Shown piece by piece: positions 4,578 through 43,191 of a stretch of DNA of 52,061 bases. The stretch's first letter is position 1; the number at the start of each line of letters is the position of its first letter. This DNA is from an uncultured Candidatus Saccharibacteria bacterium. GTDB taxonomy: Bacteria; Patescibacteriota; Minisyncoccia; Phycocordibacterales; Zambryskibacteraceae. The DNA is taken from positions 1 to 52,061 of the forward strand of contig CAZDXF010000004.1 in assembly GCA_964509605.1 (NCBI GenBank). The letters are read 5' to 3'. The notes below the pieces were generated by a model, which saw only the letters and a list, made by a program, of their open reading frames with translations, was not told the DNA's origin and made no database searches. Position numbers and translations under genes: made by a program.

Positions 4578-4600
4578 GCCCCCGCACCAAGTGCGGGGGC
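4578..4600 (-). terminator. GC-rich hairpin terminator of the GC-rich cassette gene 4606..4869
   Basis: gcccccgcac-caa-gtgcgggggc, 6 nt after the stop codon. Confidence 0.55.
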
Positions 4601-4605
4601 AATTC

Positions 4606-4869
4606 TTACTCCCACCTCTCCAGATCATCGGAAGAGGCGGATTTTGCTGCATCAAGCAGACTTGCGAGATCGTCGGCAGAGCAACCTGGACAGCGAAGGA
4701 TCGTGATCATGGACAGAGACTTCAAGCCAATTAGGGCCTGCGCTCCCTCCCCCGCTTTGACCCAGTCGGACATGATCGTGGTTCCAGTCTTCTTACAGCG
4801 CCACTTGCCGTCTTCTCCACTCTCAGCATGACTCTCAAGCCATCTGGCCTGAAACTTAAGCAACCACAT
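4606..4869 (-). CDS. Hypothetical 87-aa protein (GC-rich cassette 1)
   Basis: The ORF is preceded by a strong SD (aaggagagctcATG) and followed by a hairpin. Composition is clearly richer in G+C than the flanks. I recognise no family. Confidence 0.5.
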   Translation of the reverse strand: MWLLKFQARWLESHAESGEDGKWRCKKTGTTIMSDWVKAGEGAQALIGLKSLSMITILRCPGCSADDLASLLDAAKSASSDDLERWE

Positions 4870-4942
4870 GAGCTCTCCTTGTCAGGGTTCTAAATAGAAA
4901 TTATCATCAAAAAAATTACTGTCAAATAAAATCAGTTTTTAG

Positions 4943-5113
4943 TTAGTTTTGTTTGGGAGATTGAAAGATTTCCCCATTTACATAAACATCTGTGTCTGGC
5001 TCTGGCGTTTCTTCTATTTTATCCACAAAATATATGGTCACAAAAGTAATTATCAAAATTGCCAAAAAACCGGCTAGAAATTTAAAAAATGTTTTATCAA
5101 AATATTGAAGCAT
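4943..5113 (-). CDS. Possible 56-aa single-pass membrane peptide (below the ORF-track cutoff)
   Basis: Hand translation: MLQYFDKTFFKFLAGFLAILIITFVTIYFVDKIEETPEPDTDVYVNGEIFQSPKQN, with one clear TM helix. Confidence 0.3.
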   Translation of the reverse strand: MLQYFDKTFFKFLAGFLAILIITFVTIYFVDKIEETPEPDTDVYVNGEIFQSPKQN

Positions 5114-5151
5114 TGAAATTATTTTACACCTAAAATATTTTTAACCAAAAC

Positions 5152-5184
5152 AAAACCCCCTCGCCAATGGCGAGGGGGTTTTGT
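5152..5184 (-). terminator. Rho-independent terminator after the surface-protein gene
   Basis: aaaaccccctcgcc-aat-ggcgagggggtttt. Confidence 0.7.
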
Positions 5185-5236
5185 TTATCCGTGTCCCGTT
5201 AAAGCGGGCTTTGGATTTGTCGTATCTCTTACGAGA

Positions 5237-7171: not shown

Positions 7172-7696
7172 AAATGAATAATTTCTTTTAAACGACGCCA
7201 CCCCAATTACTTTTAAGGGTGGAGAGGTGGCGCAGTGCCTCCCTTCCGGGAGGGTGATTAAAAATAAAATTTAATAATAATTTTCTTCTAATAATTTCAT
7301 TCAACTCCCCGCCTCAATTGCTCCGCAAGTTTTAAAAACAAACGAAGACCTCGACACGAGAAGAGAGTTGGTAAGCTTGTGGGAATTAAAGAGTTTCAAC
7401 AATGTCCGTAAAAACAGAGTTCGGTGAGAGCGCTTTTTGAAAGGAGCGCCAGCCTTTTGATCCTATGAAGTTGTCAAGGTCCTGACCATACAGCGGTTCA
7501 GTCTTTTGAGACGAACAGAATATAGAAAGCTTACGCGAATAGGCCGATAGAATACGAGCCAAATCACGCACGAATTCATTATAATGCCTAACTTGCCTCA
7601 GAACAAAAGAACCGTGTGGATAACCTCAAATTGGCCTTCTCAGCCAAATGATTGCTGGTAAGAATATACAAAATATTCACAAAAGTCAAAATTTGA

Positions 7697-12382: not shown

Positions 12383-12399
12383 TTGAAAAAATAAAGCTT

Positions 12400-12700
12400 A
12401 TATCTTATAATCGCAAAACTCGCACTCAGCGAATTCGGCGAATAGCACCCTTTTGTGGGTATGATCATTCCGAGCCAAAAGAAGGATATTTCATAAAAAT
12501 CAGAAAGCTCGGAACAGACGAGAAGTTGGTGAACTAGCGGGCCTAAGCCACCCGCGCGCATCAACTCTCTTAAGGGCCTCCCGGTTGGGTATAAATAGGA
12601 ACTTGCCTCCGCGCCAGTACCAAAAAAATACCCGTGCAGACCAGGAATAAACCGAACCGCAGTGTGAGAAGCCGGTCCAACGCCCACAGGGCCGGTTTTT
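12400..12700 (+). ncRNA. Unassigned GC-enriched, hairpin-rich non-coding stretch between recA and efp, ending in a + strand intrinsic terminator
   Basis: No credible ORF. Local hairpins include ccgagc...gctcgg and gcggg-cctaagcca-cccgc. Terminator ccggtcc-aacgcccaca-gggccgg+TTTTT lies at 12671-12700. I could not find RNase P, SRP or tmRNA signature motifs. Confidence 0.25.
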
Positions 12701-12712
12701 CAATAAAAAAAT

Positions 12713-13581: not shown

Positions 13582-13776
13582 TTATTTTGAAGTATAAGGT
13601 AAAAGACCTAGGAATCTAGCTCTTTTTACCGCCAAAGACAACATTCTTTGGTGCTTCGCAGAAATTCCAGTTCTTTTTCTGGACAAAATTCTTGCGTGAG
13701 GATTTAGAAACTTTTTAATAAGTTCCGTATCTTTATAATCTATATGCTTTACATTTTGAAGACTTGTTTGTTTCAT
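13582..13776 (-). CDS. rpsR: 30S ribosomal protein S18
   Basis: IDYKDTELIKKFLNPHARILSRKRTGISAKHQRMLSLAVKRARFLGLLPY. Confidence 0.92.
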   Translation of the reverse strand: MKQTSLQNVKHIDYKDTELIKKFLNPHARILSRKRTGISAKHQRMLSLAVKRARFLGLLPYTSK

Positions 13777-13892
13777 CCCGTTTAGAAGCAGGTCGCGGTC
13801 TACGAACTCTGCTGTATATTATATTTAATAATTTAATTTTATAATCAATCTTTTCCCTCGCTTAGAAGCCGTGACCGTGGCTTCTAACGGGA
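13777..13892 (-). repeat. 116-nt structured intergenic repeat, copy A (exactly fills the ssb stop to rpsR start gap)
   Basis: Colinear with 14331-14446. Positions 1-57 are near-identical (2 mismatches), the last ~29 nt differ at 2 positions, and the centre has diverged. The termini cccgtttagaagc / gcttctaacggg are complementary. Confidence 0.85.
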
Positions 13893-14330
13893 TTAAAATG
13901 GGATATCGTCAGGATTAATTTCTTCTGGATATTCAATTGTATCTAACTCTTCTTTGGCTGGGGCTTTGCTTGAAGGGCTTTCTGGAGAGGCTGAAACGCC
14001 TTCCCTTCTTGGACCAAACTGAATCCTGTCAGCAACTATTTCTGTTCTGTATTTTTTTGTTCCGTCAGAAGCATCCCAACTTCTTGTTTGAATTCTTCCT
14101 TCCACAAGGACTGAACTCCCTTTCTTGAGATACTGAGCCACTGTCTCTGCCTGTCTGCCAAATGTGACTATATTATGATAGTCGGCGCTTTCTTGGCGAG
14201 CTCCATTTTTATCTTTCCAAACTCTATTAGTAGCAATTGAGAAAGCCGTGACTTGTATTCCAGATGGAAGAGCTTTCATTTCTGGATCTCTTGTAAGATT
14301 TCCTATAAGAATCGCTTTGTTTAGATACAT
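13893..14330 (-). CDS. ssb: Single-stranded DNA-binding protein
   Basis: The OB fold (LNKAILIGNLTRDPEMKALPSG...VWKDKNGARQESADYHNIVTFGRQAE) and the acidic tip DDIPF. Confidence 0.92.
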   Translation of the reverse strand: MYLNKAILIGNLTRDPEMKALPSGIQVTAFSIATNRVWKDKNGARQESADYHNIVTFGRQAETVAQYLKKGSSVLVEGRIQTRSWDASDGTKKYRTEIVADRIQFGPRREGVSASPESPSSKAPAKEELDTIEYPEEINPDDIPF

Positions 14331-14446
14331 CCCGTTTAGAAGCAGGTCGCGGTCTACGAACTCTGCTATATATTATTTTTAATAATTCGACTCTATAAAC
14401 AACCCCTCTCCCTTTCCAGAAACCGTGACCGCGGCTTCTAACGGGA
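14331..14446 (-). repeat. 116-nt structured intergenic repeat, copy B (starts immediately upstream of the ssb ATG)
   Basis: See copy A. It has the same length and conserved ends, and it abuts the start codon in the same way (..gcttctaaacgggATG on the minus strand). Confidence 0.85.
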
Positions 14447-19994: not shown

Positions 19995-20116
19995 TTGCGA
20001 GGAGAGCGGGGTTGTTGACGCTCCACCTGTTCTCGAGCCAGTTCCAGTTCACGACCACCTTGTTGCCGTCCCAAATGAGGTACGGAACATTGCGATTGCC
20101 GTCACGGTTCTGAGCG
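19995..20116 (-). repeat. DGR template repeat (TR)
   Basis: 112/122 identical to 20514-20635. All 10 mismatches are adenines in this copy when read on the minus strand. This copy carries AAC/AAT codons where the other copy has varied codons. Confidence 0.85.
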
Positions 20117-20422
20117 TAATATATAAAGTACTATCCATATCACCACCCCTCGAACCATATATAGGTGCCGACCATAAATGGTCGGCTACTCTCGGGGTTG
20201 TATCGTATTCCGCATCTCATTCAGTAGAATGACCCACTGGGTTAATGCGCTAGTACTCTATACCAAGTATCTTCTTTTTTTTGAAGTTTCTGCATGCACC
20301 ACCCTATGCCAAGCCTTGACCGAGCATACTCTCGATGCATGGATACTGGATTCGGGAGCCGGAAGCCGTAACCACCGGTGACTATTCCCCTACTACCATT
20401 TTTTATTTTATCATATGAAAAA

Positions 20423-20450
20423 GCCCCGCCCGCCAATTGGCGAACGGGGC
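20423..20450 (-). promoter_or_regulatory. GC-rich hairpin downstream of the VR and target-gene stop (terminator and/or DGR homing-associated stem-loop)
   Basis: gccccgcccgcc-aatt-ggcgaacggggc (12-bp stem with a 2-nt internal mismatch), followed by a T-rich tract on the minus strand. Confidence 0.6.
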
Positions 20451-20502
20451 CAAAATCCAAGAGCCAAGGTCAAAGGGTCTAAGAGCACCAAGTGACCAAG
20501 GT

Positions 20503-20997
20503 TCAAGAGCTACTTGCGAGGAGAGCGGGGCTGCTGACGCTCCACCTGTACTCGAGCCAGCTCCAGTCCACGACCACCTTGTTGCCGCCCCAAATGAGGT
20601 ACGGAACATAGCGATCGCCGTCACGGCCCTGAGCGCTCTTCCAGAGAAAAACCATCTTACCCTTCAATTCCTCTGGATAGGTCGCCGGATTGGCGACCCA
20701 ACCCCTGACTAGGTCATCCTCGATGGAGAAACAACGGTCGATGAGACCGGTCTCTTTGAGGTGGGACTCGAGATAAAACCCCCTGATTGTTTCCCCCTTC
20801 TCTTGGGTTGGGAGGAGGTAGAGCTCCCACCCTATCGCCAACGGGAGATTGAAAGTTGCCGTGCCGTTGAGAACCTTGAGCAGGTTCTTGAGAATGTCTG
20901 GCGCCTGCCCCAAACGCGTGAGGTGCACCTTGGTGAAACCGGCCACCTCAAACGCATCAACGAGCTGGTGCACCTGACCTTCTGTGTATGAGGACAT
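20503..20997 (-). CDS. DGR target protein, 164 aa (GC-rich cassette 2); the C-terminal ~40 aa are encoded by the VR
   Basis: The ORF has an SD (aaaggaaatggggacATG). The VR spans the 3' end (..AQGRDGDRYVPYLIWGGNKVVVDWSWLEYRWSVSSPALLASSS*). Confidence 0.8.
   Translation of the reverse strand: MSSYTEGQVHQLVDAFEVAGFTKVHLTRLGQAPDILKNLLKVLNGTATFNLPLAIGWELYLLPTQEKGETIRGFYLESHLKETGLIDRCFSIEDDLVRGWVANPATYPEELKGKMVFLWKSAQGRDGDRYVPYLIWGGNKVVVDWSWLEYRWSVSSPALLASSS
20514..20635 (-). repeat. DGR variable repeat (VR)
   Basis: See the TR entry. TR codons AAC, AAT, AAT, GAC, AAC, AAC, AAC, AAC, AAC correspond to GGC, GAT, TAT, GGC, GAC, AGC, TAC, AGC, AGC here. Confidence 0.85.
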
Positions 20998-21152
20998 GTC
21001 CCCATTTCCTTTCTGGGCTCATGAGCCCAAAAGATTGCCTCTGCCCGAGGTAGGAGCTAGACCTGATGGTCATAGCGAGGAGACCCCAAACATGTCTGGG
21101 AGCTTTTCGCTATGACCATTGCAAGTAGTATCTCAAAGTTCTATCTTCCTTA

Positions 21153-21181
21153 ATTATACACCCACATTAGCTAAATGTCAA
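21153..21181 (-). promoter_or_regulatory. Consensus sigma70 promoter of the DGR target gene
   Basis: The minus strand reads TTGACA (21181-21176), a 17-nt spacer, then TATAAT (21158-21153). Confidence 0.6.
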
Positions 21182-24538: not shown

Positions 24539-25126
24539 TTATTGGCTCGCTTTTAATGCCTTATTGATACTTGAGACCAGATCCGTTTTATACCGCTCCA
24601 CCTCCTTTAGAAGCTCTCTTTCTATGGCGGAGTGAAAAATTTTAGGAGGAAATGGTTTTGGATCTAAAAAACCAAGATTGTGCAAAATTCTTGAAACAAT
24701 AACGATTTCCGCTAAATCAATTTCTTTTTCAGAAAAATTCTCGCTTTTTATCTCCTCCACGCCTTTTTCAACCACTTTAAAAAGTTCTTTGTTTTTTTCT
24801 TCGCCGTTCAACATCAAAAGAAGAATTGAAAATATCCTTCCAAAAAGAATTTCCTTCTTTCTGTTTTTTGGATTGAAATAAAGAAGATTCTTGGCTTCTG
24901 AAGCGCTCGTTATTTTCCAAGAATTTTTACCACGAACAAGAGAGCAATTTATCATAGAAAACGGATTGAGATGCGCTCGTAGCTTTGAAGAAACAACTCT
25001 GGCGCTTTTAGCAGATGTGTTTATGAGCCCCAAATCCTCGGTAAAAATTTTTAAAAACTTATCGGCTTCTCCTTGAGGAGAACTGCTCAGTACAAAACCT
25101 CTGGTCGTATAAACATGATATGCCAT
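24539..25126 (-). CDS. recO: DNA repair protein RecO (short form)
   Basis: N-terminal OB-fold pattern TRGFVLSSSPQGEADKFLKIFTEDLGLINTSAKSAR...LNPFS. Confidence 0.7.
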   Translation of the reverse strand: MAYHVYTTRGFVLSSSPQGEADKFLKIFTEDLGLINTSAKSARVVSSKLRAHLNPFSMINCSLVRGKNSWKITSASEAKNLLYFNPKNRKKEILFGRIFSILLLMLNGEEKNKELFKVVEKGVEEIKSENFSEKEIDLAEIVIVSRILHNLGFLDPKPFPPKIFHSAIERELLKEVERYKTDLVSSINKALKASQ

Positions 25127-28100
25127 TAGACAATTTCTATTTCAAACCAACTTTCATTTTCTTCCGACAAATCTGCTCCAAATTTAAAATCAGAAACTCC
25201 GCATATTTTTTTTATCATTGAAGAATTTTTTTCAAAAACATTTTTCATTTTAGGAGAAATACTTAAGGAAACATTTATTTTGTCTTTAGGGAGAAGACCT
25301 TTGAGCTTTCTCATCTCCTGCAAAGCTCTTATAAACTCCCTTATTTCCCCTTCTTCTTTCAGTTCTTCAGTAATTTGAGTATCCAAACTAACTTCGTCCT
25401 CCAATTTTTCAGAATAAACAACATCTTTCACATTTACTTCATCTTTTATAATTTCCAAAAAATCTTCATTTAGAGAAATTTTTCCTTTTTTTATTTCAAG
25501 CTTGCTTAAAGGTTGTCTTATTTTAATCCCAGATTTCGCCCTAGCTTCAAGTGCCAGAGAAACTAACCTTCTGGTCTCTCTCATACTACTCAAAGATTCT
25601 TGGCTGACCCTTGAAGCTCCTGGCCAATCTTCAAGATGAACGCTTACGAGCTCCCCTCCCTTGGTTATCCTTCTGTAGATGTCTTCTCCCCAAAATGGAG
25701 CAAATGGAGAAACTACCTTTGAAAATTCTTTTATTACAAACCCTAATGTAGAAATTGCATCTTCTTTATCCTTCTCGTCTTCTCCTTTAAATCTGTCTCT
25801 TGAGCGCCTCAAATACCACTGCGAGAGATCGGCTATAAAATCCCTGATTCCTCTGACTGATTCAAAAACTTTATAGGAATCCATATTTTTTGAAACTTTC
25901 AAAACAAGCTCATCAAAAAGAGAAAGTATCCAAACATCTAGGACATTAGAAACCTTTGGACGCTCTTTCGGAGCGTTTTCTTTTGAATACAGTTCGTAGA
26001 AAGACAAAACATTATTAAACAAATTAAAAACTTTTTTATTTACATCATCTACTGTTTTTTCATCAAAATTTTTTGCATCTCCGGGCTGGTTTACCGAATA
26101 CATCCAAAGTCTCAGAGGATCAACACCGTATTTATCTATCATCTCCCAAGGATCCACCGCATTGCCTTTTGATTTTGACATCTTCTGACCTTTTTCATCC
26201 AAAATATGGCCGAGACAAATTACATTTTTATAAGCTCTCCCTTTGCCAAATAAAATCCCTATAGCGTGAAGAGTATAAAACCACCCTCTAGTTTGATCTA
26301 TCGCTTCAGAAATAAAATCGGCTGGATAGGGAGAATTTTCTATTCTTTTTTTGAGATCTTTTTGGCTTAGAGAAATTTCTGAAGCGTTTTGAGAAAGAGA
26401 CATTGCCCCAGAATCAAACCAGACATCAACCACCTCTGGGACTCTTTTCAAAACATTTCCTGTCTTTTTTGATTTGATGACAACATCATCAACATAAGGG
26501 CGGTGGAGATCAAGTTCGAAATCAGAGTTTTTAGGAAGTGCTCTAAAATCAATCTCTTTAAATTCACCTGTTTTTACGATATCTTCTCCAGCATCTTCTT
26601 TCATTTTTATCGCACCGTTTTTACCAACCCCTAGTGAGACAGCCTCCATCATCCAGAGAGGGTATTCATGGCTTATTATGAGTATTTTTTTGTTGTTATA
26701 TTTTGAATCAATATCATATAAAAACTCCCCTACTCTTTTGCGAAGTTCTGAAAGATTCTCTCCACCTTCTGGTGCTTTTTCAAATTTTTCTGAAATAGAC
26801 GAAAAGAAACCGTGGTATTCATTTACATGCTTACCATTAAATATTCCTGTTTGTATTTCTTTTATCCTCTCATCAACAACAATATTTTTTTCATCCAAGC
26901 CTAAAATCTCTGCTACTTTTTTTGCAGTCTCTCTTGTGCGAATAAGAGGCGAAGTGAATATCAAATCTATTTTTTCTTTTTTGAGTTTCTTTGAAGCATC
27001 AAGGACTTGTTTCTCTCCCATCTCTGTAAGACTTGATGGGACCGAATCATCTCCGCTCACAATACAAGAAACATTTTTCTCGGCTTGACCGTGTCTCATT
27101 ATGAAAAAGGTGTTTCTTTTTTCTATTTTTTCTTTTAGTTCGCTTACTGAACCAATAACATCTGTCTCAGTGCCATCTTCCGAAATCCAAACTGGAAGCG
27201 GGGTGCCCCAATATCGCTCTCTAGAAAATGCCCAATCTTTTACATCAGAAAGCCATTCTCCAAATCTACCGTCTTTTATATGCTCTGGCTCCCAGTTTAT
27301 TTTCTGATTTTCAGAAACAAGATCCTCTCTTAATTGAGACATTTTTATATACCAAGAACTTCTGGCGTAATAAACCAAAGGGGTTTTGCATCTCCAACAA
27401 AAAGGATAGCTGTGCTCAAACTTTTCTTTCTTAAAAAGCAAATTCCTTCCAGCTAAATCTTTTATCACAAAAACAGCTGTGTCTTCGTCGTGAACAAATT
27501 TTCCAGAAAATTCTCCCGTGTTTGCAATAAAATGGCCCGAATCGTCTACCAAATGAAACTTTGGAAGACTGACTTTCGTGCCAAGCTCAAAATCGTCTTG
27601 CCCATACATTACCGCTGTATGCACAATCCCCGTACCATCTTCTGTAGTTACAAAATCAGCCGAATAAACTTTGTATGCGTTAGAAAGTTTCTCTTTTTGA
27701 GAATCAGAGATGTTTTGTGAAAGATATGGATAGAGTGGTTCGTATTCCATACCAACCATCTCGCTTCCTTTATGTTCTGCTATCACTTCATATTCATCAG
27801 TCAAAAGCTCGAGCTTATCCTTAGCTAAAACTAAAATTTCACCATTAACCTTGGCCTCTACATAAGTAATGTCTTTTCCTACGGCTAAGGCAACATTGCC
27901 CGGTAAAGTCCACGGGGTTGTCGTCCAAGCTACAAAATAAGCATCTGGGAAACCAATGATTTTAAATTTTACAAATACAGAAAGACTTTTTATTGTTTCA
28001 TAACCTTGAGCCAGCTCGTGAGAAGAAAGTCCTGTGCCACATCTCGGACACCAAGGAACCACCTTGTAGTCTTTGTAGAGAAGTTTTTTCTCATTTACAG

Positions 28101-28593
28101 TTTTTATAATCGCCCAAAGAGACTCCATATATCCGGAAGAATAAGTAATATAGGGACTCTCCATATCAACCCAAAAACCGATTCTTCTAGTAAAATCCTG
28201 CCATTCACTTAAATACTTCCAAACATTTTTTTTGCACTCTTCGTTGAATTTGGCAATGCTGTATTCTTCAATTTCTTTTTTTGATTTTATTCCCAACTGT
28301 TTCTCAACTTCAAGCTCCACTGGAAGTCCGTGCGTATCCCAACCAGCTTTTCTTTCCACACGAAAACCTCGCATCGTTTTGTAGCGAGGGATTGCGTCTT
28401 TAAACGCGCGAGCTTCTAGGTGGTGAATCCCCGGTCTGCCATTTGCAGTTGGAGGCCCTTCATAAAAAACAAAAGATCCCTCTGGAGATTTTTTCTCGAG
28501 GGTTTTTTTGAAAACTTCTTCCTTTTCCCAAAAAGACAGTATCTCTTCTTCTTTGAGGGCTAGTGGAGATTTATCTTCTCTCTCTGTGGCCAT
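25126..28593 (-). CDS. ileS: Isoleucyl-tRNA synthetase (type 2-like) carrying a nested histidine-phosphatase domain
   Basis: PPTANGRPGIHHLEAR (HIGH), WTTTPWTLPGN (editing domain), KMSKSKGN; 1155 aa. Confidence 0.95.
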   Translation of the reverse strand: MATEREDKSPLALKEEEILSFWEKEEVFKKTLEKKSPEGSFVFYEGPPTANGRPGIHHLEARAFKDAIPRYKTMRGFRVERKAGWDTHGLPVELEVEKQLGIKSKKEIEEYSIAKFNEECKKNVWKYLSEWQDFTRRIGFWVDMESPYITYSSGYMESLWAIIKTVNEKKLLYKDYKVVPWCPRCGTGLSSHELAQGYETIKSLSVFVKFKIIGFPDAYFVAWTTTPWTLPGNVALAVGKDITYVEAKVNGEILVLAKDKLELLTDEYEVIAEHKGSEMVGMEYEPLYPYLSQNISDSQKEKLSNAYKVYSADFVTTEDGTGIVHTAVMYGQDDFELGTKVSLPKFHLVDDSGHFIANTGEFSGKFVHDEDTAVFVIKDLAGRNLLFKKEKFEHSYPFCWRCKTPLVYYARSSWYIKMSQLREDLVSENQKINWEPEHIKDGRFGEWLSDVKDWAFSRERYWGTPLPVWISEDGTETDVIGSVSELKEKIEKRNTFFIMRHGQAEKNVSCIVSGDDSVPSSLTEMGEKQVLDASKKLKKEKIDLIFTSPLIRTRETAKKVAEILGLDEKNIVVDERIKEIQTGIFNGKHVNEYHGFFSSISEKFEKAPEGGENLSELRKRVGEFLYDIDSKYNNKKILIISHEYPLWMMEAVSLGVGKNGAIKMKEDAGEDIVKTGEFKEIDFRALPKNSDFELDLHRPYVDDVVIKSKKTGNVLKRVPEVVDVWFDSGAMSLSQNASEISLSQKDLKKRIENSPYPADFISEAIDQTRGWFYTLHAIGILFGKGRAYKNVICLGHILDEKGQKMSKSKGNAVDPWEMIDKYGVDPLRLWMYSVNQPGDAKNFDEKTVDDVNKKVFNLFNNVLSFYELYSKENAPKERPKVSNVLDVWILSLFDELVLKVSKNMDSYKVFESVRGIRDFIADLSQWYLRRSRDRFKGEDEKDKEDAISTLGFVIKEFSKVVSPFAPFWGEDIYRRITKGGELVSVHLEDWPGASRVSQESLSSMRETRRLVSLALEARAKSGIKIRQPLSKLEIKKGKISLNEDFLEIIKDEVNVKDVVYSEKLEDEVSLDTQITEELKEEGEIREFIRALQEMRKLKGLLPKDKINVSLSISPKMKNVFEKNSSMIKKICGVSDFKFGADLSEENESWFEIEIV
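26539..27117 (-). other. Histidine phosphatase (PGAM/CobC-like) domain inserted in IleRS (aa ~493-685)
   Basis: FFIMRHGQAEKN (RHG motif), SPLIRTRETA, and ILIISHEYPL (second catalytic His). The insert lies between ..WISEDGTETDVIGSVSELKEKIEK and DLHRPYVDD, segments that I recall being only ~10-15 aa apart in other type 2 IleRS. Confidence 0.75.
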
Positions 28594-28630
28594 ATATGTT
28601 CAATCGTATCACAAAGTTATAAAAACAAAG

Positions 28631-28660
28631 ACCCCCGCGACAACTTGTGTCGCGGGGTTT
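28631..28660 (-). terminator. GC-rich hairpin terminator of cassette 3
   Basis: ccccgcgac-aacttgt-gtcgcgggg with flanking T/A runs. Confidence 0.6.
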
Positions 28661-28742
28661 TCTTCACGCCGGGTTCCAATGACCGAAGCTTACGGGGTCC
28701 TCAGCCCTGTGCTTGGCAGTAAAACACGGCACGGCAATACGG

Positions 28743-29177
28743 TCAGGTCATCATCAGGTCGGAGGGGATGTCGACGAAGCGTCGACATCGGCCCTCCGGG
28801 TCCATGACCCGGGCGCCGGTACTCGGCAGGAGATCGCCGGAGCTCGTCATGAGCGCCGGGTACAGCATCGCAGTCGTTTCGTAAACGTGGTCCAGGGCCG
28901 TGAAGACGGCGCTGGAGGGATCGGCGTTATCGCCGAGGATGATGCTCGCGGGGCTCGCCCGCGAGAGCGCGTCGCCGGCCATGGCCGGGCTGAGGTCCAC
29001 GAAGATCGTCATCTCCATCGTGCTGGCGCCCGTCACGGGGGCCGGCAGGTCCTGCGTCGCGTTGTCGTACTCCATGACCTCATTGACCGAGGGCGGCGGA
29101 TCAGTCGCGTGGGCGACCGAGGCCGACATCGGCACCGCCACCAAGGTGGCGATGAGAGCCATCGTCCGAAGGCGCAT
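28743..29177 (-). CDS. Hypothetical secreted protein, 144 aa (GC-rich cassette 3, the most GC-rich)
   Basis: Signal peptide MRLRTMALIATLVAVPMSASVAHA and SD aaaggagtatgaATG. Hand counts: 28801-28860 is 43/60 G+C, against 24/60 for 28441-28500 inside ileS. Confidence 0.6.
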   Translation of the reverse strand: MRLRTMALIATLVAVPMSASVAHATDPPPSVNEVMEYDNATQDLPAPVTGASTMEMTIFVDLSPAMAGDALSRASPASIILGDNADPSSAVFTALDHVYETTAMLYPALMTSSGDLLPSTGARVMDPEGRCRRFVDIPSDLMMT

Positions 29178-29246
29178 TCATACTCCTTTCGGCTGGTTGT
29201 GAAGCCAATATGAGCGGATACTCACATTGGGTACATCTAACAATCC

Positions 29247-29275
29247 ATTATACACCCTTATTCACTTTTTGTCAA
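29247..29275 (-). promoter_or_regulatory. Consensus sigma70 promoter of cassette 3
   Basis: The minus strand reads TTGACA (29275-29270), a 17-nt spacer, then TATAAT (29252-29247). A second tttgacaaaaag copy lies 15 nt upstream. Confidence 0.6.
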
Positions 29276-29336
29276 ACAATATTTAGGCTTTTTGTCAAAA
29301 AGCTATATTTAAAGCCATTTTTAAGGCAATACCGCT

Positions 29337-31060: not shown

Positions 31061-31711
31061 CTAAGTGCCGGGCCCCGTGTTCGGTTTTCCAAAGAACGGC
31101 TCAAGAATTCTCAAGCAGTCAATCAGAACTTTCTCTCTAGGCTGAGATCCATCAACCACTGAATGTGGAACTCGAGAGAAAAACTCAGAGAGACCTTCTG
31201 CAACCATTCGATGAAAGCTGTGTTCTCTCTCATCAAAGTGTGTAGTTTCTTGAGACTTATCTCGCGCTCGTCTCTCAACTCCAACTTCGACTGGAACCTG
31301 GACCAGAATATAGAGATCTGGAGCGAGTCCTTGGTCTACAAGAAGAGATTTTCTAATAGACCAAAAAAGTGGTTCAAGTTCCCTGTTTTGAGGAGCAACG
31401 ACTTGATAGGCAAATGTTGACTCATCAAAACGGTCGGCTATCACACCGATTCCGCTAGAGAGAGCTTTTTCCACAACCAAAGACAAGAGGTTCGCTCTGG
31501 CGCAGAAAAAGTGAAGGAGTTGAGTGACTGGGCTCCATCCTGCTCCCACGCTTGAGAGTACTTCTTTTCGAATCTTTTCAGACAAGTCAGTTCCGCCCGG
31601 CTCTCGAACATAAACCAAAGCGTCTCCGTAAAGTTCTCTGATCTTCTTGATGAGGGTGGTCTTGCCAGCCCCATCAGGACCAGAAATTACAACAAACTTG
31701 CCTCTTGTCAT
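31061..31711 (-). CDS. tmk: Thymidylate (dTMP) kinase family protein, intermediate GC, SD-led
   Basis: P-loop FVVISGPDGAGKTT, REPGGT, DRF motif; SD ttaggaggcgggtATG. A hairpin terminator (gcccggc/gccgggc) overlaps the stop codon. Confidence 0.8.
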   Translation of the reverse strand: MTRGKFVVISGPDGAGKTTLIKKIRELYGDALVYVREPGGTDLSEKIRKEVLSSVGAGWSPVTQLLHFFCARANLLSLVVEKALSSGIGVIADRFDESTFAYQVVAPQNRELEPLFWSIRKSLLVDQGLAPDLYILVQVPVEVGVERRARDKSQETTHFDEREHSFHRMVAEGLSEFFSRVPHSVVDGSQPREKVLIDCLRILEPFFGKPNTGPGT

Positions 31712-31856
31712 ACCCGCCTCCTAAGAGTAAAAGAGCGTTTCCTTGAAACAAATTACACTAATTCAAACACTTGGCAACCGTTGACAATAAAATCAAAAAG
31801 TAGAAAATTGCTTTTGGAATAAGAACCTTCTCATCACACTAAACGCGGAGAAAACG

Positions 31857-32687
31857 ATGCTTGAATATCTTGATGCTATGAGAGACATCATTGAAAATGG
31901 AGTAGATCGCCCTGGAAGAAACGGCGACACTAGGGCTATTTTTTCCATTCCCATGCGTTTCAACATGGACGACGGTTTCCCAGCTGTAACCACCAAGAAA
32001 CTTGCTTTCAAATCAATGACTGCGGAGCTTCTCTGGTTTCTTGAAGGTTCAGGGGACGACAACCGACTCAAGGAAATCGTCGGCAGAAAACGCACCATCT
32101 GGACCGACAATGCCGAATCAAGCTACTGGTCTCCAAGAGCTCGTTTCCCTGGTGATTTGGGGAGAATATACGGAGTTCAGTGGAGGCATTGGATGAAACG
32201 GGACGGCCAGGAAGTAGATCAAATCAGGAATTTGATCGATGGACTTCGAAACAACCCGTTTGATCGACGCCATGTCGTAACGGCATGGAACCCTGGAGAA
32301 CTTGGTGAAATGGCTCTCCCGCCATGCCACATGTTCTTCCAGCTCTTTGCCTACCCAGACGGAAGACTCTCTCTTTCAATGGTCCAGAGAAGTTGCGACA
32401 TGTTCCTCGGGGTGCCTTTCAACATCGCGTCATACGCCCTCCTTCTCTCCATGATCGCCCAAGTCGTAGGCATGAGACCTTATGAGTGCATCTTTCTTTT
32501 CCAAGACGCACACATATACCATGCACACTTTGAGGCCGTACTTGAACAGCTTTCCCGAAAGCCGTTTGAACGGCCAAAACTCTGGCTCAACCCAGAAGTA
32601 AGGGAAATTGATGAGTTTAGCCTAAAAGACATCGAGCTTCGGAACTACAATCACCACCCGGCAATTGAAGCTCCGATGATCGTTTAG
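31857..32687 (+). CDS. thyA: Thymidylate synthase ThyA
   Basis: RTGTGT-like (DRPGRNGDTRAIF), LPPCHMFFQ (catalytic Cys), DAHIYHAH; 276 aa. Confidence 0.95.
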   Translation: MLEYLDAMRDIIENGVDRPGRNGDTRAIFSIPMRFNMDDGFPAVTTKKLAFKSMTAELLWFLEGSGDDNRLKEIVGRKRTIWTDNAESSYWSPRARFPGDLGRIYGVQWRHWMKRDGQEVDQIRNLIDGLRNNPFDRRHVVTAWNPGELGEMALPPCHMFFQLFAYPDGRLSLSMVQRSCDMFLGVPFNIASYALLLSMIAQVVGMRPYECIFLFQDAHIYHAHFEAVLEQLSRKPFERPKLWLNPEVREIDEFSLKDIELRNYNHHPAIEAPMIV

Positions 32688-33415: not shown

Positions 33416-33468
33416 AGAAAACACCGCCCCAGTAAACCGGGACGGTGTTGTGTGCAACCTAAGTAACA

Positions 33469-34320
33469 CTACTCACTTCCGGGCGCAGGAAGCTTCCTGC
33501 GCTTGAGGAGTTGAACAAGAGACAGGACGATCAGTCCAGAAGCCAGCAAAATCATTGTGGCTGGCTCTGGAACAACCGTTGAAGCCCCGTAAAGAACCTC
33601 GTCGGTCAGAAGACCTTCCTTATAAGCCCAGCTATCCTGTCCGAGCTCAACAGATGCTCGGTAGTAAAGATCAGCAGTAGGATCGTAGAAGATCCCGGCC
33701 ATCTGTCCTGACACTGCATTCGGCCTGATCATGGACTCAAAGAGCCCCGACGAGGCGTTCCAGACCGCCGAAGAGAGGAAGGACGCTGTGAGCGAAATGC
33801 TCCAATCAAGGAACACCCCTCCGTTCGCAGCGTTCACACCGTTCCACAGTCGCCCGCAATCTTCTGGCGGAATCGTGGAACACCCCTGAATGGTCGGGCC
33901 TCCTTGCGCAAACATCTGAAAGATTGTTCGCGAGGGATCAGCCCAGCTCATGCTCATAGACGAAACGGAACCAGCGTCGGTGTCGTACACCTGCCAGAAG
34001 CCGACATTGGTGTTATTGGGGTTTGTATTCGGAACCCCGGTAAACCAGTTCGTCAGCATGTAAGCGAAATACGACTGACTTCCCCCATAGTGGGGAGTGT
34101 TCATCCCCATATAGAGGGCGAGGTCCCTTGTGGGGAAATCGCTCGCATAGAGCTGGTTCACACCCTGCTGGGCATCAGAGAGAGAGTTGTATGCCGACAG
34201 CAAGCCATTCCCATAGGAAAGGCTGTAGTCGTACACAAACCCTGACTGAGCAGAGACATCTGTCCGCCCGAGAGCCAGAAGGGCAAACAGGGCAAACAGG
34301 AGACCTCTCATTTTCATCAT
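33469..34320 (-). CDS. Secreted protein with a C-terminal PEP-CTERM sorting signal (GC-rich cassette 4)
   Basis: Signal peptide MMKMRGLLFALFALLALGRTDVSA. The C-terminus reads VPEPATMILLASGLIVLSLVQLLKRRK, i.e. PEP, then a TM helix, then a basic tail. SD ccggaggaaaATG. Confidence 0.75.
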   Translation of the reverse strand: MMKMRGLLFALFALLALGRTDVSAQSGFVYDYSLSYGNGLLSAYNSLSDAQQGVNQLYASDFPTRDLALYMGMNTPHYGGSQSYFAYMLTNWFTGVPNTNPNNTNVGFWQVYDTDAGSVSSMSMSWADPSRTIFQMFAQGGPTIQGCSTIPPEDCGRLWNGVNAANGGVFLDWSISLTASFLSSAVWNASSGLFESMIRPNAVSGQMAGIFYDPTADLYYRASVELGQDSWAYKEGLLTDEVLYGASTVVPEPATMILLASGLIVLSLVQLLKRRKLPAPGSE

Positions 34321-34373
34321 TTTCCTCCGGTTAGGGTTTTACTTGGAATTGCACTGAAAGGAGCGACAGCCCC

Positions 34374-34401
34374 AAAATACTTATTGAGACGAATTTGTCA
34401 A
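34374..34401 (-). promoter_or_regulatory. Candidate promoter of the PEP-CTERM cassette
   Basis: The minus strand reads TTGACA (34401-34396), a 16-nt spacer, then TATTTT (34379-34374). Confidence 0.45.
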
Positions 34402-34403
34402 AT

Positions 34404-34437
34404 ACAAAATAGCCCCGACAAGTCGGGGCTATTTTGT
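34404..34437 (-). terminator. Rho-independent terminator after rplK
   Basis: acaaaatagccccgac-aagt-cggggctattttgt. Confidence 0.7.
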
Positions 34438-34447
34438 ATTTGATTTT

Positions 34448-34870
34448 CTATTTTACTTCAACACCCATGGATCGAGCGGTGCCTTCTATTATTTTCATCG
34501 CTCCTTCAATATCATTTGCGTTTAAATCTGGCATTTTTTTCTCGGCAATTTCCTTTACTTGGGCTTTTGTAAGTTTGCCAACCTTGCTTGAAACATTTTT
34601 TCCGGATCCTTTTTCTGCACCTATAGCTTTGAGTATCAAACTTGATGCTGGAGGAGTTTTGAGAATGAAATCAAAACTTCTATCTTCGTAAACACTTATC
34701 TCAGCCGGAATTGTCTGTCCCATCATTTCTCTAGTGGCATCATTAAACTTGGTGATAAATTCACCAATGTTTATTCCCGCCTGACCCAAAGTTGGCCCCA
34801 CTGGAGGTGCCGGGGTTGCCTTGCCTGCTGGCAAAACCACTTTTAGTTTTTTAGCTACTTTTTTCGCCAT
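34448..34870 (-). CDS. rplK: 50S ribosomal protein L11
   Basis: [31 protein letters not shown] and [12 protein letters not shown]. Confidence 0.96.
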
Positions 34871-40469: not shown

Positions 40470-40510
40470 ATCTAAAGATTAGTACGAAAATTAAAAAATA
40501 TAAACGACAT

Positions 40511-40534
40511 GGGCGGGCCTCAATTGGCCCGCCC
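40511..40534. terminator. GC-rich hairpin next to cassette 5
   Basis: gggcgggcc-tcaatt-ggcccgccc. The T run is on the + side, so orientation and function are ambiguous. Confidence 0.4.
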
Positions 40535-40550
40535 GTTTTTCCTTCTTGCC

Positions 40551-40781
40551 CTAAGCCTTGGACACGACTTGCGCCGTCTTGGTGCAGACGCAGTAATAGT
40601 TGTGTCCATCCTTACTCAAACACACGATTGGCGGCCTCCTGTTGCCAGGAAGTCTCTTCCCACTGAGCGCCGCGTCCACCGACTGCATCGTGAACTGCGG
40701 GAAGGTGTCATCAGTCTTGGGTGAAGAGGTAAACTCACCCCGAACTCCAGACTTCTTTCTCCCGCCAACCGAATGAGGCAT
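40551..40781 (-). CDS. Hypothetical basic 76-aa protein (GC-rich cassette 5)
   Basis: SD ttaggagtttaaATG. The promoter-like TTGACA-17-TATTCT lies at 40859-40831. No family recognised. Confidence 0.45.
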   Translation of the reverse strand: MPHSVGGRKKSGVRGEFTSSPKTDDTFPQFTMQSVDAALSGKRLPGNRRPPIVCLSKDGHNYYCVCTKTAQVVSKA

Positions 40782-40864
40782 TTAAACTCCTAAGGGTAGA
40801 TTGTAAAAACCACAGGGAACTTCCATAAACAGAATAGAACAATTTAAACTCTATGTCAAAGAAA

Positions 40865-41737
40865 TTAGAGCACAATCAGCACTGTTCCCAAAATTATCAC
40901 TAGAGATGCGAGCATCTTTCTGCCCAAATGTTTTTCGTGGAAAAGCTCCCCGCCTATTAAAGTTGTGAAAAATGACGAGCTCCTTTTTATTGCGGACACC
41001 AAACCGACAAACATTAGAGACAGTGCTTGCATCTGAAAAAATCTATAAATAATAGTAAACGCTGAAATGAAAAAAATATTTTTCTTCTCGGTTTTTAGCG
41101 CTTGAACTATACCACCCAATCCTCTGCCTATAAAAAACAAAGCTGGCACATACAATAATCCGATGAAAAGATGGACAAAAAACATATAGTTGGCGATAGG
41201 AACTTCAAAATCAAAAAGAATAGCTCTGTCCAGTGTTGCGCCCATAGAATAGAAAAGTAAAGACGCTAAAACAAAGTGGATGTACTTTGACTCAGCAAAC
41301 ATTTTTATCGGAGAAAATATCCCTTTTCCAGGTTCCAAGGTGAGAATATAAGAACCGATTATCATAAAGACAATTCCCCAAATTGATTGAGGATCAAGTC
41401 TTTCTCCTAATATAAAAAAACCAAAAAAAGAGGTTGTGCCTGGGGTAAGGGCCAAAAGTGGAGCCACGGTGCTTATTTCCATATGTCTTATTGCTTTTGC
41501 GACAAGATAAAACGCTATCGCAGCCACAAGACCAGAACCAAAAATCACAACCATTGAGTGAAATTCAACTTTACTAAAATCAACAAAAAACAAAAAAGGT
41601 AGAGCAAAAATCAAATTTGAAAAAGCCAGTGTTGAAGAAAGATCAATAGAGTGCACCGTCTTCAAGGCCTTTTTCTCTACAAGAGCAGATGCGGATACAA
41701 ATAGAGCGGCCAGAAGTGCAAAAATGAACCAATTCAT
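40865..41737 (-). CDS. EamA/DMT-family transporter
   Basis: 290 aa with ~10 TM helices and a two-fold internal repeat typical of EamA. Confidence 0.78.
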   Translation of the reverse strand: MNWFIFALLAALFVSASALVEKKALKTVHSIDLSSTLAFSNLIFALPFLFFVDFSKVEFHSMVVIFGSGLVAAIAFYLVAKAIRHMEISTVAPLLALTPGTTSFFGFFILGERLDPQSIWGIVFMIIGSYILTLEPGKGIFSPIKMFAESKYIHFVLASLLFYSMGATLDRAILFDFEVPIANYMFFVHLFIGLLYVPALFFIGRGLGGIVQALKTEKKNIFFISAFTIIYRFFQMQALSLMFVGLVSAIKRSSSFFTTLIGGELFHEKHLGRKMLASLVIILGTVLIVL

Positions 41738-41746
41738 GAGTTAATT

Positions 41747-42535
41747 TTAAAGTCTAGAAAAATAGTATTCAACTCCATCCCACCAACCATCTCCATTGGT
41801 GTCCCTCTTAAACGGTTCTGTGTTTGTACAATCTGGATCTTCAAAATAAATTCCAGTGCAAGTCTCCTGCTGATCAGTAAGACCATCTTCGTCACTATCC
41901 AAAATCATAGCTTGGAGTTTCTCTTCTACAAATTCCGGAGTATCTGTTTCTTTTGGTGTATAGAGCCATCCTCGTGCCGGATTAAATGTGAGTACTTTTA
42001 TTGAACCGGTGAAATCATCTCTGACAAAATAAACATAACCTCTAGCAAAACCGACCAGCCCCCCCTCTTCTACTCTAATAAAATCGGTAGATATTATTAT
42101 CTGACTTCTGTCTTCCCAAATATGAACAAAATCTTGTTTTCTCAAATCTTTGCCGAGCTCATACACTCCGTCCATTCTTAAAAAACACTCCTCTTCTCTT
42201 TCGGGGTCTGCGCATGCTTCAGATTGTTTATAGGTAAGTAATTTTACTCCCTCTATATCGCGAGCTTGGGCTTTTAGTAAAAAATCTTGAAAAATTTTCC
42301 AGGAATTATCCAAACTGCTAGACCTCGGAGCCTGTGGTTCGTTCTCTACAGGAGTTTCTTCATCCAAAAGAAAGTTGGGCGTTGGATCAACGTCATTCCA
42401 AGAAAAGCCAGTTTCATCTAATTTGTTTATAGAAAAATTTTTGATACCAAAAAAAACCGCCACAGCAAAAAGCGCTAGAAAAACAATAATCACGATACTT
42501 ACCGCTTTTATTTTTTTGTGATGTTCTTCGTGCAT
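41747..42535 (-). CDS. Membrane-anchored hypothetical protein with thrombospondin-type-3-like Ca-binding motifs at the C-terminus
   Basis: One N-terminal TM helix, plus DSDEDGLTDQQE and DTNGDGWWDG motifs. Confidence 0.6.
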   Translation of the reverse strand: MHEEHHKKIKAVSIVIIVFLALFAVAVFFGIKNFSINKLDETGFSWNDVDPTPNFLLDEETPVENEPQAPRSSSLDNSWKIFQDFLLKAQARDIEGVKLLTYKQSEACADPEREEECFLRMDGVYELGKDLRKQDFVHIWEDRSQIIISTDFIRVEEGGLVGFARGYVYFVRDDFTGSIKVLTFNPARGWLYTPKETDTPEFVEEKLQAMILDSDEDGLTDQQETCTGIYFEDPDCTNTEPFKRDTNGDGWWDGVEYYFSRL

Positions 42536-42609
42536 TTATATCAATTATAACCTTTTTGGGTCGATGGGTGTATAGATTTAACACTAAGTTTGTTTCCATA
42601 TAAAGAAAA

Positions 42610-42637
42610 AGGCGCCGTACCCGTGGGTCGTGCGCCT
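42610..42637 (-). terminator. Hairpin terminator of cassette 6
   Basis: aggcgc...gcgcct stem with an inner accc-gt-gggt stem, followed by a T-rich run on the minus strand. Confidence 0.55.
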
Positions 42638-42655
42638 CATTTTTCTCCCAGAAAG

Positions 42656-43057
42656 TCAAGCCACCTTAGATGCCTCCTTCACTTCTTCCCTGAACCAACC
42701 CCAAGAAACACGACGCTCCTCATCCAAACACTTCTTGGCTACCTCGAGAGCAACAAGAAGTTGATTGGTGTGTTCCATGAGTCGTTGGGCAGAAATCATA
42801 TCTGCAAGCCTTGGACCCATACCAGCATAGTAGCGACGACACGGTCTCTGCCACTGAGGATTCAGCTCGCAAAAGAAGAAGTCCATTACCGACACATAAC
42901 GGTCCATGTTCTTCCTTGAGGCAACAAACTCCAACGATTCCATGTAGTCGCCACTCAAGAGGAGGGCTTCCACTTGTGGAAAGATTGAGTTGGTGGCACC
43001 ACCAACCAGTTCTAAGGCCTGTCTGACCTCCATGCACATCGACATTGATAGCGACAT
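42656..43057 (-). CDS. Hypothetical 133-aa, predicted all-helical protein (GC-rich cassette 6)
   Basis: SD tggaggcaggaATG. TTGACA-16-TATTTT lies at 43124-43097. No family recognised. Confidence 0.5.
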   Translation of the reverse strand: MSLSMSMCMEVRQALELVGGATNSIFPQVEALLLSGDYMESLEFVASRKNMDRYVSVMDFFFCELNPQWQRPCRRYYAGMGPRLADMISAQRLMEHTNQLLVALEVAKKCLDEERRVSWGWFREEVKEASKVA

Positions 43058-43191
43058 TCCTGCCTCCAGAGAAAGTTGTTCAAAATTCTATTTCTTAAAA
43101 TATAACAAAAATTGCGATTGTCAACTAACTAGTTTTAACACCTCAATATTGGGTATCCAGAAATCGCCCAACAAAGCCATGAGATAAATTG

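Follow-up and report, generated by a model that had tools for sequence, protein, structure and literature searches.

Morons, in the concept of Hendrix, Juhala and co-workers, are reportedly autonomously transcribed units lodged between the conserved genes of phages. Six genes of comparable design, located in a cellular chromosome, are described here from a 52,061-bp stretch of DNA, hereafter the window, which is the complete contig CAZDXF010000004.1 of an uncultured member of the Candidate Phyla Radiation (CPR, Patescibacteria). They are designated c1 to c6 in the order of their positions and all lie on the minus strand; each is a short G+C-rich open reading frame (ORF) with a putative promoter, Shine-Dalgarno (SD) sequence, and terminator of its own (Table 1), set among native genes that are poor in G+C and devoid of SD. 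According to the interpretation favoured here, to which a probability of about 0.6 is assigned, they constitute autonomous cassettes of accessory genes, similar to morons but located in a CPR chromosome, which were gained by horizontal transfer from more than one source, have partly been inherited vertically since then, and are expressed via a promoter–leader–SD route of their own, distinct from that of the SD-free, often leaderless core genes.

The cassettes resemble phage morons in being single-gene units with, at the sequence level, their own sigma-70-type promoter and factor-independent terminator, in lying between genes that adjoin each other in relatives (c2 is the cleanest case, while the slots of c3 and c4 are differently filled), and in having a base composition unlike that of their neighbours (z of 3.9–9.6 for G+C content relative to 44 native genes of the window); moreover, the c6 family is shared with jumbo-phage contigs. 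They differ from morons in their location, as they lie among genes of ribosomal proteins and tRNA synthetases in the chromosome of a cell and not in a phage or prophage, and in being unlike their host in the mode of translation initiation. No phage structural or integration genes are found among the annotated genes flanking the cassettes, which code for ribosomal proteins, tRNA synthetases, and transporters, and the sole recombinase gene (46803–48272) lies 3.7 kb from the nearest cassette.

A second system for comparison is that of islets of atypical composition and their amelioration, a model reportedly due to Lawrence and Ochman. As in acquired genomic islets, the cassettes are atypical in G+C content, both overall and at third codon positions (GC3), and patchy among relatives, and c4 has homologues in distant G+C-rich taxa. 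Unlike such islets, they are single genes with no integrase or tRNA-attachment signature, and their composition seems not to relax toward the host value at the rate expected from the amelioration model. They differ also from integron cassettes, being scattered over 39 kb, each with its own promoter, and sharing no common imperfect inverted repeat; no tyrosine integrase is encoded among 20 neighbouring genes scanned against Pfam.

Two further systems are related to parts of the picture. In diversity-generating retroelements (DGRs) with targets served in trans, as in c2, the differences between the template repeat (TR) and the variable repeat (VR) are only adenine-directed and VR is situated at the 3′ end of the target gene. 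In the window and in two relatives, however, the target and TR lie together without the genes for reverse transcriptase (RT) or Avd, and in complete elements the target contrasts sharply, in G+C content and in its use of SD, with its own RT and Avd genes. Lineages such as Bacteroidota hardly use SD in translation, and the loss of the anti-SD motif is reported for a subgroup of Parcubacteria (PMC9297842); these are matched here by a backbone in which SD is found at or below the chance rate and by the lack of uL1 in its canonical place after rplK. What sets the present genome apart from them is a minority of accessory genes with strong, optimally spaced, and evolutionarily conserved SD sequences.

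Shared Features of the Six Cassettes

The 44 native genes have a mean G+C content of 0.376 (standard deviation 0.031, maximum 0.45) and a mean GC3 of 0.319 (standard deviation 0.036). The six cassettes are all outliers from this distribution, with z of 6.5–15.8 for GC3, and the G+C peaks fall where an earlier reading of the window, made from the sequence only, had placed six minus-strand ORFs richer in G+C than their surroundings. The GGAG-type SD strings quoted in that reading are likewise all present, one in front of each cassette ORF, with a duplex energy with the anti-SD of −6.8 to −11.3 kcal/mol. Its contrast between native genes without SD and the intermediate-G+C genes tmk and thyA with SD holds as well: SD precedes eight of eight genes when the cassettes, tmk, and thyA are taken together, while none of the 44 native genes reaches −6.5 kcal/mol (Fisher p = 1.3e-9).

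The promoters of c2 and c3 are perfect TTGACA-17-TATAAT sequences, those of c4–c6 have a spacer of 16–17 nt to a weaker −10 box, and in c1 TTGACA lies 14 nt from GATAAT, all as previously read. TTGACA occurs 13 times in 7.2 kb of intergenic DNA versus 16 times in 45 kb of genic DNA, which is an approximately five-fold enrichment, and the cassettes account for seven of the 13 intergenic copies. The remaining ones precede the 23S rRNA gene, rplJ, a block of genes directly upstream of nusG (secE, as judged from synteny with the relative L081, see below), thyA, and two further sites. Since TTGACA promoters are also found in front of native genes (23S rRNA, rplJ, and the block upstream of nusG), this promoter type is not foreign to the genome. 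The hairpin noted 3′ of every cassette is followed by a T-run in six of six cases (dG −18.6 to −27.1 kcal/mol), and these terminators are among the strongest hits of the terminator scan of the region. The promoters, SD sequences, and terminators thus named are putative ones, recognised by their motifs.

None of the cassettes matches an Rfam family, either at the gathering score or at E <= 1, and a scan of the six products against Pfam and PHROG gave the PEP-CTERM domain of c4 as its sole match. The earlier statement that no family was recognised for any product stands for c1, c3, and c5, which are orphans, and is corrected for c4 (PEP-CTERM, PF07589) and for c2 and c6, for which families were found. 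At third codon positions adenine is rarer than thymine in six of six cassettes; such a bias is typical of G+C-rich genomes, and adenine-specific mutagenesis as the cause of the adenine depletion was for this reason set aside. Isolated G+C-rich, SD-led orphan ORFs of a similar kind are present in four relatives (L056, L027, L031, and L019). Of the flanking genes in the c2 and c6 loci, 12% have an SD.

Table 1. Features of the six cassettes and of the tmk and thyA genes. Positions are those of the window; dG, free energy (kcal/mol), for SD that of the duplex with the anti-SD; aa, amino acids; GC, G+C content. All signals and products are predicted.
Feature	Position	Strand	Remarks
c1 promoter-like site	4900..4925	-	TTGACA at 4925-4920, 14 nt, GATAAT; sub-optimal spacing
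c1 SD	4875..4880	-	AAGGAG, 5 nt from ATG; dG -8.3
c1 ORF	4606..4869	-	87 aa, orphan; GC 0.54, GC3 0.60
c1 terminator	4578..4600	-	10-bp GC stem and T-run, dG -21.3; starts 5 nt past the stop codon
c2 promoter	21153..21181	-	perfect TTGACA-17-TATAAT; TG upstream of -10
c2 SD	21007..21011	-	AAGGA, 9 nt from ATG; dG -9.3
c2 ORF	20503..20997	-	164 aa, DGR variable protein; GC 0.57, GC3 0.72; family P0032-P0040, 56-63% identity
DGR variable repeat (VR)	20514..20635	-	3′ end of c2; 92% identity to TR over 122 nt
c2 terminator	20422..20469	-	13-bp GC stem and T-run, dG -27.1
DGR template repeat (TR)	19995..20116	-	pairs with VR; RT and Avd genes not nearby
c3 promoter	29247..29298	-	perfect TTGACA-17-TATAAT at 29275-29247, second TTGACA at 29298; conserved in L081
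c3 SD	29183..29188	-	AAGGAG, 5 nt from ATG; dG -11.3; AAAGGAG in L081 orthologue
c3 ORF	28743..29177	-	144 aa, predicted secreted orphan protein; GC 0.67, GC3 0.89; signal peptide, read from sequence, cleaved between AHA and TDPP
c3 terminator	28627..28665	-	10-bp GC stem and T-run, dG -22.5; blocks of 3′ untranslated region conserved in L081
c4 promoter	34374..34401	-	TTGACA-16-TATTTT; overlaps rplK terminator hairpin 34398-34443
c4 SD	34324..34328	-	GGAGG; CGGAGG (L081) and GAGGTG (L105) in orthologues
c4 ORF	33469..34320, probable start 34317	-	283 aa, predicted PEP-CTERM surface protein; GC 0.54, GC3 0.62; PF07589 21.2 bits (cut-off 20.7)
c4 terminator	33420..33449	-	13-bp stem and T-run
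c5 promoter	40831..40859	-	TTGACA-17-TATTCT
c5 SD	40787..40791	-	AGGAG, 5 nt from ATG; CGGAG in L081 orthologue
c5 ORF	40551..40781	-	76 aa, orphan; GC 0.55, GC3 0.68
c5 terminator	40502..40545	-	9-bp all-GC stem, dG -23.9
c6 promoter	43097..43124	-	TTGACA-16-TATATT (-10 read as TATTTT in a second scan)
c6 SD	43063..43067	-	GGAGG, 5 nt from ATG; dG -9.3
c6 ORF	42656..43057	-	133 aa, large Patescibacteria/jumbo-phage family (451 clusters at 50% identity); GC 0.50, GC3 0.55
c6 terminator	42609..42654	-	hairpin and T-run, dG -18.6
tmk	31061..31722	-	intermediate GC 0.47; SD AGGAGG at 31717-31722, dG -10.8; Pfam Thymidylate_kin
thyA	31781..32687	+	own TTGACA promoter and SD, dG -6.6; GC 0.49, GC3 0.52

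The Host and Its Native Genes

The overall G+C content of the window is 39.8%. Its RecA shows at most 87% identity to proteins of metagenome-assembled genomes of Parcubacteria/Paceibacteria labelled Taylor-, Zambryski-, Campbell-, Adler-, and Nomurabacteria, and the host is, as judged from this sequence, a parcubacterium (Paceibacteria). Besides the 5′ part of a 23S rRNA gene, the contig comprises six tRNA genes and housekeeping genes, including rplJ–rplL, ftsK, recA, efp, rpsR, ssb, metG, glyS, ileS, argS, tmk, thyA, dcd, rplK, and nusG. The rplJ–rplL genes (3299–4341), preceded by c1, are 30 kb away from rplK (34448–34870), which is not followed by rplA, coding for uL1; c4 is found in that place. 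This fits the subgroup of Parcubacteria without uL1 (PMC9297842), to which the host probably belongs. A published survey reports that about half of Parcubacteria lack the anti-SD motif, in overlap with the uL1-less group (PMC9297842). The 16S rRNA gene, sought in order to read the anti-SD, is absent from the window and from all the fetched loci.

The lack of SD is a lineage-wide trait: in a set of 750 conserved genes from the recA neighbourhoods of 80 relatives, SD with dG <= −7 is found in 4.4%, versus 6.3% at random positions. What does precede native genes is a TATAAT-like hexamer, situated 5–9 nt (mostly 6 nt) 5′ of ATG in 12 of the 44 genes (e.g., at the gene starts 24515, 32756, 42535, 44050, and 51657), compared with 7.3% of all ATG trinucleotides. 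These −10 boxes are often devoid of a −35 box, and the same pattern is visible in the relatives. The location of the −10 box so close to ATG, above background, suggests that many native mRNAs are leaderless.

Insertion Slots in Related Genomes

Counterparts of c2–c5 are found in assemblies made independently from different samples (Logan SRR30281353, JGI 3300009873, and ENA ERZ4903055). The Logan locus, L081 (G+C content 0.39), is syntenic with the window from EamA to ileS, with native proteins 56–93% identical to those of the window, and carries c3, c4, and c5 in the same slots. In the JGI locus, L105, the order rplK–c4–dcd–thyA–tmk–argS is exactly that of the window, and in the ENA loci, L115 and L116, glyS, a c2 homologue, TR, and the M16 peptidase gene are arranged as in the window. 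Since c2–c5 are reproduced at the same slots in independent assemblies, they predate the splits from these relatives, and a recent acquisition is contradicted by orthologues in place among native proteins so far diverged.

The same comparison bears out the view of the cassettes as accessory insertions in a conserved backbone. The genes of M16 peptidase and glyS, which frame the c2 slot, are adjacent in 25 relatives, with a gap of mostly 9–160 nt, versus 1363 nt in the window. The slot between argS and ileS comprises c3 in the window and L081, and a complete DGR (target, Avd, and RT) in L110–L112; after rplK, c4 is present in the window as well as in L081 and L105, and L112 has a different small gene there. 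Judged by gene order, the backbone has hot slots with changing cargo. For c1, flanked by rplJ and its upstream gene, gene order varies too much among the relatives for the slot to be judged empty or filled.

The Individual Cassettes

The c4 product is a predicted surface protein, with a C-terminal PEP motif, a transmembrane helix, a basic cluster, and an N-terminal signal peptide read from the sequence; the VPEPATM...RRK motif is conserved in 22 of 22 aligned homologues. The SD string reported for c4 is in place, while the start codon needs correction, as it is most likely the second ATG (34317), which makes the SD spacing 6 nt and not 3 nt; the database protein has 282 amino acids. The orthologues in the same slot of L081 and L105 are 72–81% identical (ca. 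80% in L081), with substitutions by codon position of 0.23/0.12/0.55, indicating purifying selection. The homologues outside this group, with 45–55% identity, are native genes of contigs with a G+C content of 63–66% and GC3 of 0.84, and among species-representative genomes the family is found in Longimicrobiaceae, Hydrogenedentota, Fimbriimonadaceae, Rubrivivax, and similar taxa, with no Parcubacteria. Since the nearest non-CPR relatives are native genes of bacteria of 60–66% G+C, the horizontal transfer of c4 from a G+C-rich Gram-negative donor, such as Gemmatimonadota, is well supported. The G+C-richer donors proposed earlier thus hold for c4; for the other cassettes no donor was identified, and the families of c2 and c6 are associated with Patescibacteria or phages.

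The c6 family was located with a 10-sequence profile, as that of 61 relatives was too diverse. It is present in 20 species-representative genomes, mostly of Patescibacteria, and in seven viral contigs of IMG/VR. At the 21 loci measured, the c6 gene is richer in G+C than the host by 0.04–0.22 in 14 of 14 hosts with a G+C content of 0.33–0.46, and near the host value in most of the G+C-richer hosts; on the viral contigs it has the phage's own G+C content, and in one of them a major head protein is encoded 1.4 kb away. A strong SD (GGAGG) precedes c6 at 15 of the 21 loci, and among 17 loci scanned for signals a TTGAC(A/T) promoter is found in 13 and a terminator in all 17. Flanking genes are common to only 3 of 153 pairs of c6 loci. 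In the window, c6 adjoins tRNA-His, with a single imperfect 12-nt repeat (at 42573 and 43130) and no integrase found. The model of its product is all-helical, with a predicted local distance difference test (pLDDT) score of 90.8, and a fold search gave no match in PDB.

c2 is a genuine DGR target: the TR–VR mismatches are located in 10 of 10 cases at adenines of TR, which makes the DGR real, and the pair looks active from its sequence. No YxDD motif of RT is found in any frame of the window and neither RT nor Avd is encoded on the contig; the same arrangement, target and TR without RT or Avd, is seen in L114 and L115, while in L110–L112 the RT and Avd genes adjoin a homologous target. The leader of c2 is ca. 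150 nt long and comprises a hairpin at 21066–21119. The C-terminal domain of the protein is conserved and modelled at pLDDT > 90, and a Foldseek search with the model gives C-type lectins as top hits, which are weak (E 0.2–0.7, template modelling score 0.37–0.47). A search in IMG/VR found nothing. The G+C content is 0.55–0.61 in nine of ten family members, in hosts of 0.39–0.49, and a GGAG-type SD precedes seven of seven scored, whereas the Avd and RT genes of these DGRs have a G+C content of 0.34–0.43 and no SD. The assignment of the DGR target to the G+C-rich, SD-led class, made earlier for the window, thus extends to the family.

c3 and c5 are orphans with an orthologue in L081. That of c3 (L081:16945–17358) is 39% identical in amino acid sequence, with GC3 of 0.81, a TTGACA-17-TGTATAAT promoter, and conserved blocks in the untranslated regions (UTRs). 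Most gaps in the alignment inside the ORF are multiples of three. The G+C content by codon position is 0.61/0.52/0.89 in c3 and 0.60/0.46/0.81 in the orthologue, and substitutions are equal across the codon positions (0.45/0.38/0.44). The c5 orthologue (L081:4040–4264), in the same slot, shows 42% identity, and third codon positions are the most diverged (0.49/0.49/0.71). In the stored gene calls of L081 the c3 orthologue is placed on the wrong strand, as an ORF of 139 aa, and that of c5 is missed altogether. Such islets are mis-called by gene callers and are therefore under-represented in protein databases.

The c1 product belongs to no Pfam or PHROG family and forms a singleton cluster, with no relative in any of the fetched loci, and of all six cassettes it is the one least certain to be protein-coding. 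An AT-rich ORF of 57 codons with a hydrophobic core (4942–5112, minus strand), below the 60-aa limit of the ORF list, lies between the c1 promoter and the terminator of a gene coding for a 654-amino-acid peptidoglycan-binding protein.

The two genes of intermediate composition are housekeeping ones. The tmk product shows 68% identity to that of L105 and 36% to that of L112, and the thyA product 85% identity to that of L105 and only 32% to that of L081, while L112 has thyX instead. By these identities thyA is a xenologous replacement. In L112, tmk, gmk, thyX, and dcd are also richer in G+C and preceded by SD.

Origin and Maintenance of the Cassettes

In the favoured interpretation each cassette would be a monocistronic unit made of a sigma-70 promoter, a leader, SD, an ORF, and an intrinsic terminator, and its separate transcription and termination would allow insertion without disturbing the neighbours, as in phage morons. 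c4 would come from a G+C-rich, Gemmatimonadota-like Gram-negative of the exosortase type, c6 from a gene pool common to jumbo phages, while c2 would be a portable module of a DGR target with its TR, on which an RT encoded elsewhere in the genome acts in trans; thyA and tmk would have arrived by xenologous replacement. Some cassettes would have been inherited since before the split from L081, L105, and L115. Their leadered G+C-rich mRNAs would be translated by SD-dependent initiation, and the native ones, many of them probably leaderless, by SD-free initiation. For all the cassettes except c4 we infer the direction of transfer.

Several observations weigh against this interpretation. No donor can be named for c3, which has no homologue besides L081 among 5.8 billion proteins, JGI metagenome contigs, and IMG/VR, or for c1 and c5, which have no relative in IMG/VR, the fetched loci giving only the L081 orthologue of c5. 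The slots, scanned for flanking repeats and shared inverted repeats, show no consistent mobility signature, and no integrase or attachment site was found at the cassettes. If the loss of anti-SD described for Parcubacteria (PMC9297842) holds in this organism, SD-dependent translation would be impossible in the cell. The composition is a further difficulty. Between the window and L081, ca. 55% of the native third codon positions are different, which is near saturation, and c3 nevertheless retains GC3 of 0.89 and 0.81 in the two lineages, with 44% of its own third positions changed. GC3 of c4 is 0.55–0.63 in three genomes, with 75 GC-to-AT versus 55 AT-to-GC changes at third positions, where ca. 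3.5:1 would be expected under relaxation to GC3 of 0.30; this count comes from a crude three-taxon parsimony and is only suggestive. A simple leftover of donor composition does not fit well with these values. As GC3 of c3 and c4 persists and the SD cores are kept in orthologues despite the diverged leader around them, composition and SD look maintained rather than fading. It is a plausible idea that G+C-rich structured mRNAs need SD where AT-rich mRNAs initiate without one; continual horizontal flux is another plausible cause of the persisting G+C-richness.

The cassettes may, as a tentative alternative, constitute a native expression class, selectively maintained and kept G+C-rich, leadered, and SD-dependent, with a horizontal origin that is incidental or ancient; a possible reason would be the inability of structured G+C-rich mRNAs to use the SD-independent or leaderless route. 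G+C-richness and SD are indeed conserved in c3 of L081, in c4 of three genomes, in c2 of nine of ten hosts, and in c6 of all the measured hosts of 0.33–0.46 G+C, a single DGR holds a G+C-rich, SD-led target beside AT-rich Avd and RT genes, the third-position flux of c4 is close to stationary, and the SD-led nucleotide-metabolism genes of L112 point the same way. The idea of a distinct expression class, voiced already in the sequence-only reading, is in this respect at least as well supported as the acquisition from G+C-richer donors proposed there, since both traits belong to whole families across many hosts; as an explanation competing with acquisition it is nevertheless possible rather than probable. 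The nearest outside relatives of c4 are native to G+C-rich Gram-negatives, slots are empty or otherwise filled in relatives, and c6 occurs in unrelated contexts and on phage contigs. SD strength is uncorrelated with GC3 excess (Spearman −0.003 for 1148 ORFs of 80 relatives, a crude set including spurious ORFs), and no mechanism of selection is known. The two explanations overlap and the present data do not separate them. A related and similarly speculative proposal is that high GC3 and SD are not donor relics but under active maintenance, and mark an additional level of expression, dependent on SD and reserved for mobile accessory genes (those of DGR targets and of surface or secreted proteins, and genes shared with phages), within a lineage of the CPR that has an SD-free and largely leaderless core.

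It is very unlikely that the islands are genes of structured non-coding RNAs, equipped with promoter and terminator, in which the ORFs are chance open frames of the kind common in G+C-rich DNA. Such a nature would be in line with the several frames open across the islands (e.g., 28713–29213 and 4454–4831, both on the plus strand), with the choice of the opposite strand by the gene caller in L081, and, in c3, with the conserved UTR blocks, a conserved 7-bp palindrome, CCGGGTC-ATG-GACCCGG, and the equal substitution of the three codon positions. The absence of Rfam matches even at E <= 1, the strong 3-periodicity of G+C in the expected frame of both c3 orthologues, together with the gaps in multiples of three, the signal peptides, the PEP-CTERM motif, families with conserved residues, the confident fold of c6, and an SD optimally spaced before every ATG argue for protein-coding genes; for c2, c4, and c6, with protein families, motifs, the c6 fold, and a DGR VR in c2, the non-coding interpretation is refuted. 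Still less credible are assembly chimeras or contaminating reads from G+C-rich community members, for which the sharp compositional boundaries and the metagenomic origin of the contig would speak. The islands are framed by AT-rich promoter sequence of the native type and end at the terminator, the c4 promoter overlaps the rplK terminator, and the c6 family shows the same architecture in 17 other genomes; for c2–c5, found in the same slots of the independent assemblies, a chimera, which had been the caveat of the sequence-only reading, is effectively refuted. The probability left over falls to explanations not considered here. The acquisition of moron-like cassettes remains the favoured interpretation.

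Other Features of the Window

An 82-nt direct repeat with 88% identity (13767–13848 and 14321–14402) forms the leader of both rpsR (13582–13776) and ssb (13893–14330), with 22 identical nt upstream of each ATG. The spacer between recA and efp (12383–12712, plus strand) is 330 nt long with a G+C content of 0.47; it begins with TTGAAA-17-TATAAT, ends with a hairpin and T-run just before efp, and folds to −94 kcal/mol, its 5′ and 3′ ends pairing in a closing helix. Neither an Rfam match nor any resemblance to the spacers of 49 relatives was found, and the spacer is a candidate for a structured small RNA of ca. 290 nt. The ileS product (25126–28593, minus strand) contains an inserted histidine-phosphatase domain, His_Phos_1, at residues 497–660, which is also recorded in the IleRS of L081, L110, and L112. 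Finally, nested inverted repeats of 101–104 nt, 96–97% complementary (45723–45826/46560–46663 and 46659–46759/48163–48263), enclose the genes of a large serine recombinase (46803–48272) and a bPH_2 protein (45867–46397). This region, 45723–48263, is located between tRNA-Val and tRNA-Arg and could represent either an integrated element or a segment capable of inversion.

Significance

Patescibacteria (CPR) constitute a large and barely cultivated part of bacterial diversity, and the ways in which they gain and express new genes are poorly known. One genome shows here a clean split between an AT-rich, SD-free, often apparently leaderless core and accessory genes that are G+C-rich, SD-led, individually terminated, and equipped with a consensus promoter, and in the c2 and c6 families the split recurs across dozens of genomes. 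It is also a warning that gene callers mis-call such G+C-rich islands. If the 16S rRNA truly lacks the anti-SD, as reported for many uL1-less Parcubacteria, the conserved SD sequences would call for an even stranger cause, for instance translation by another ribosome. Should the split be general, the use of the anti-SD by ribosomes of uL1-less Parcubacteria becomes testable, and the flexible genome of these organisms would have a simple sequence signature, one that flags candidate host-interaction proteins such as the PEP-CTERM surface protein, the secreted fast-evolving protein, and the DGR-diversified binder.

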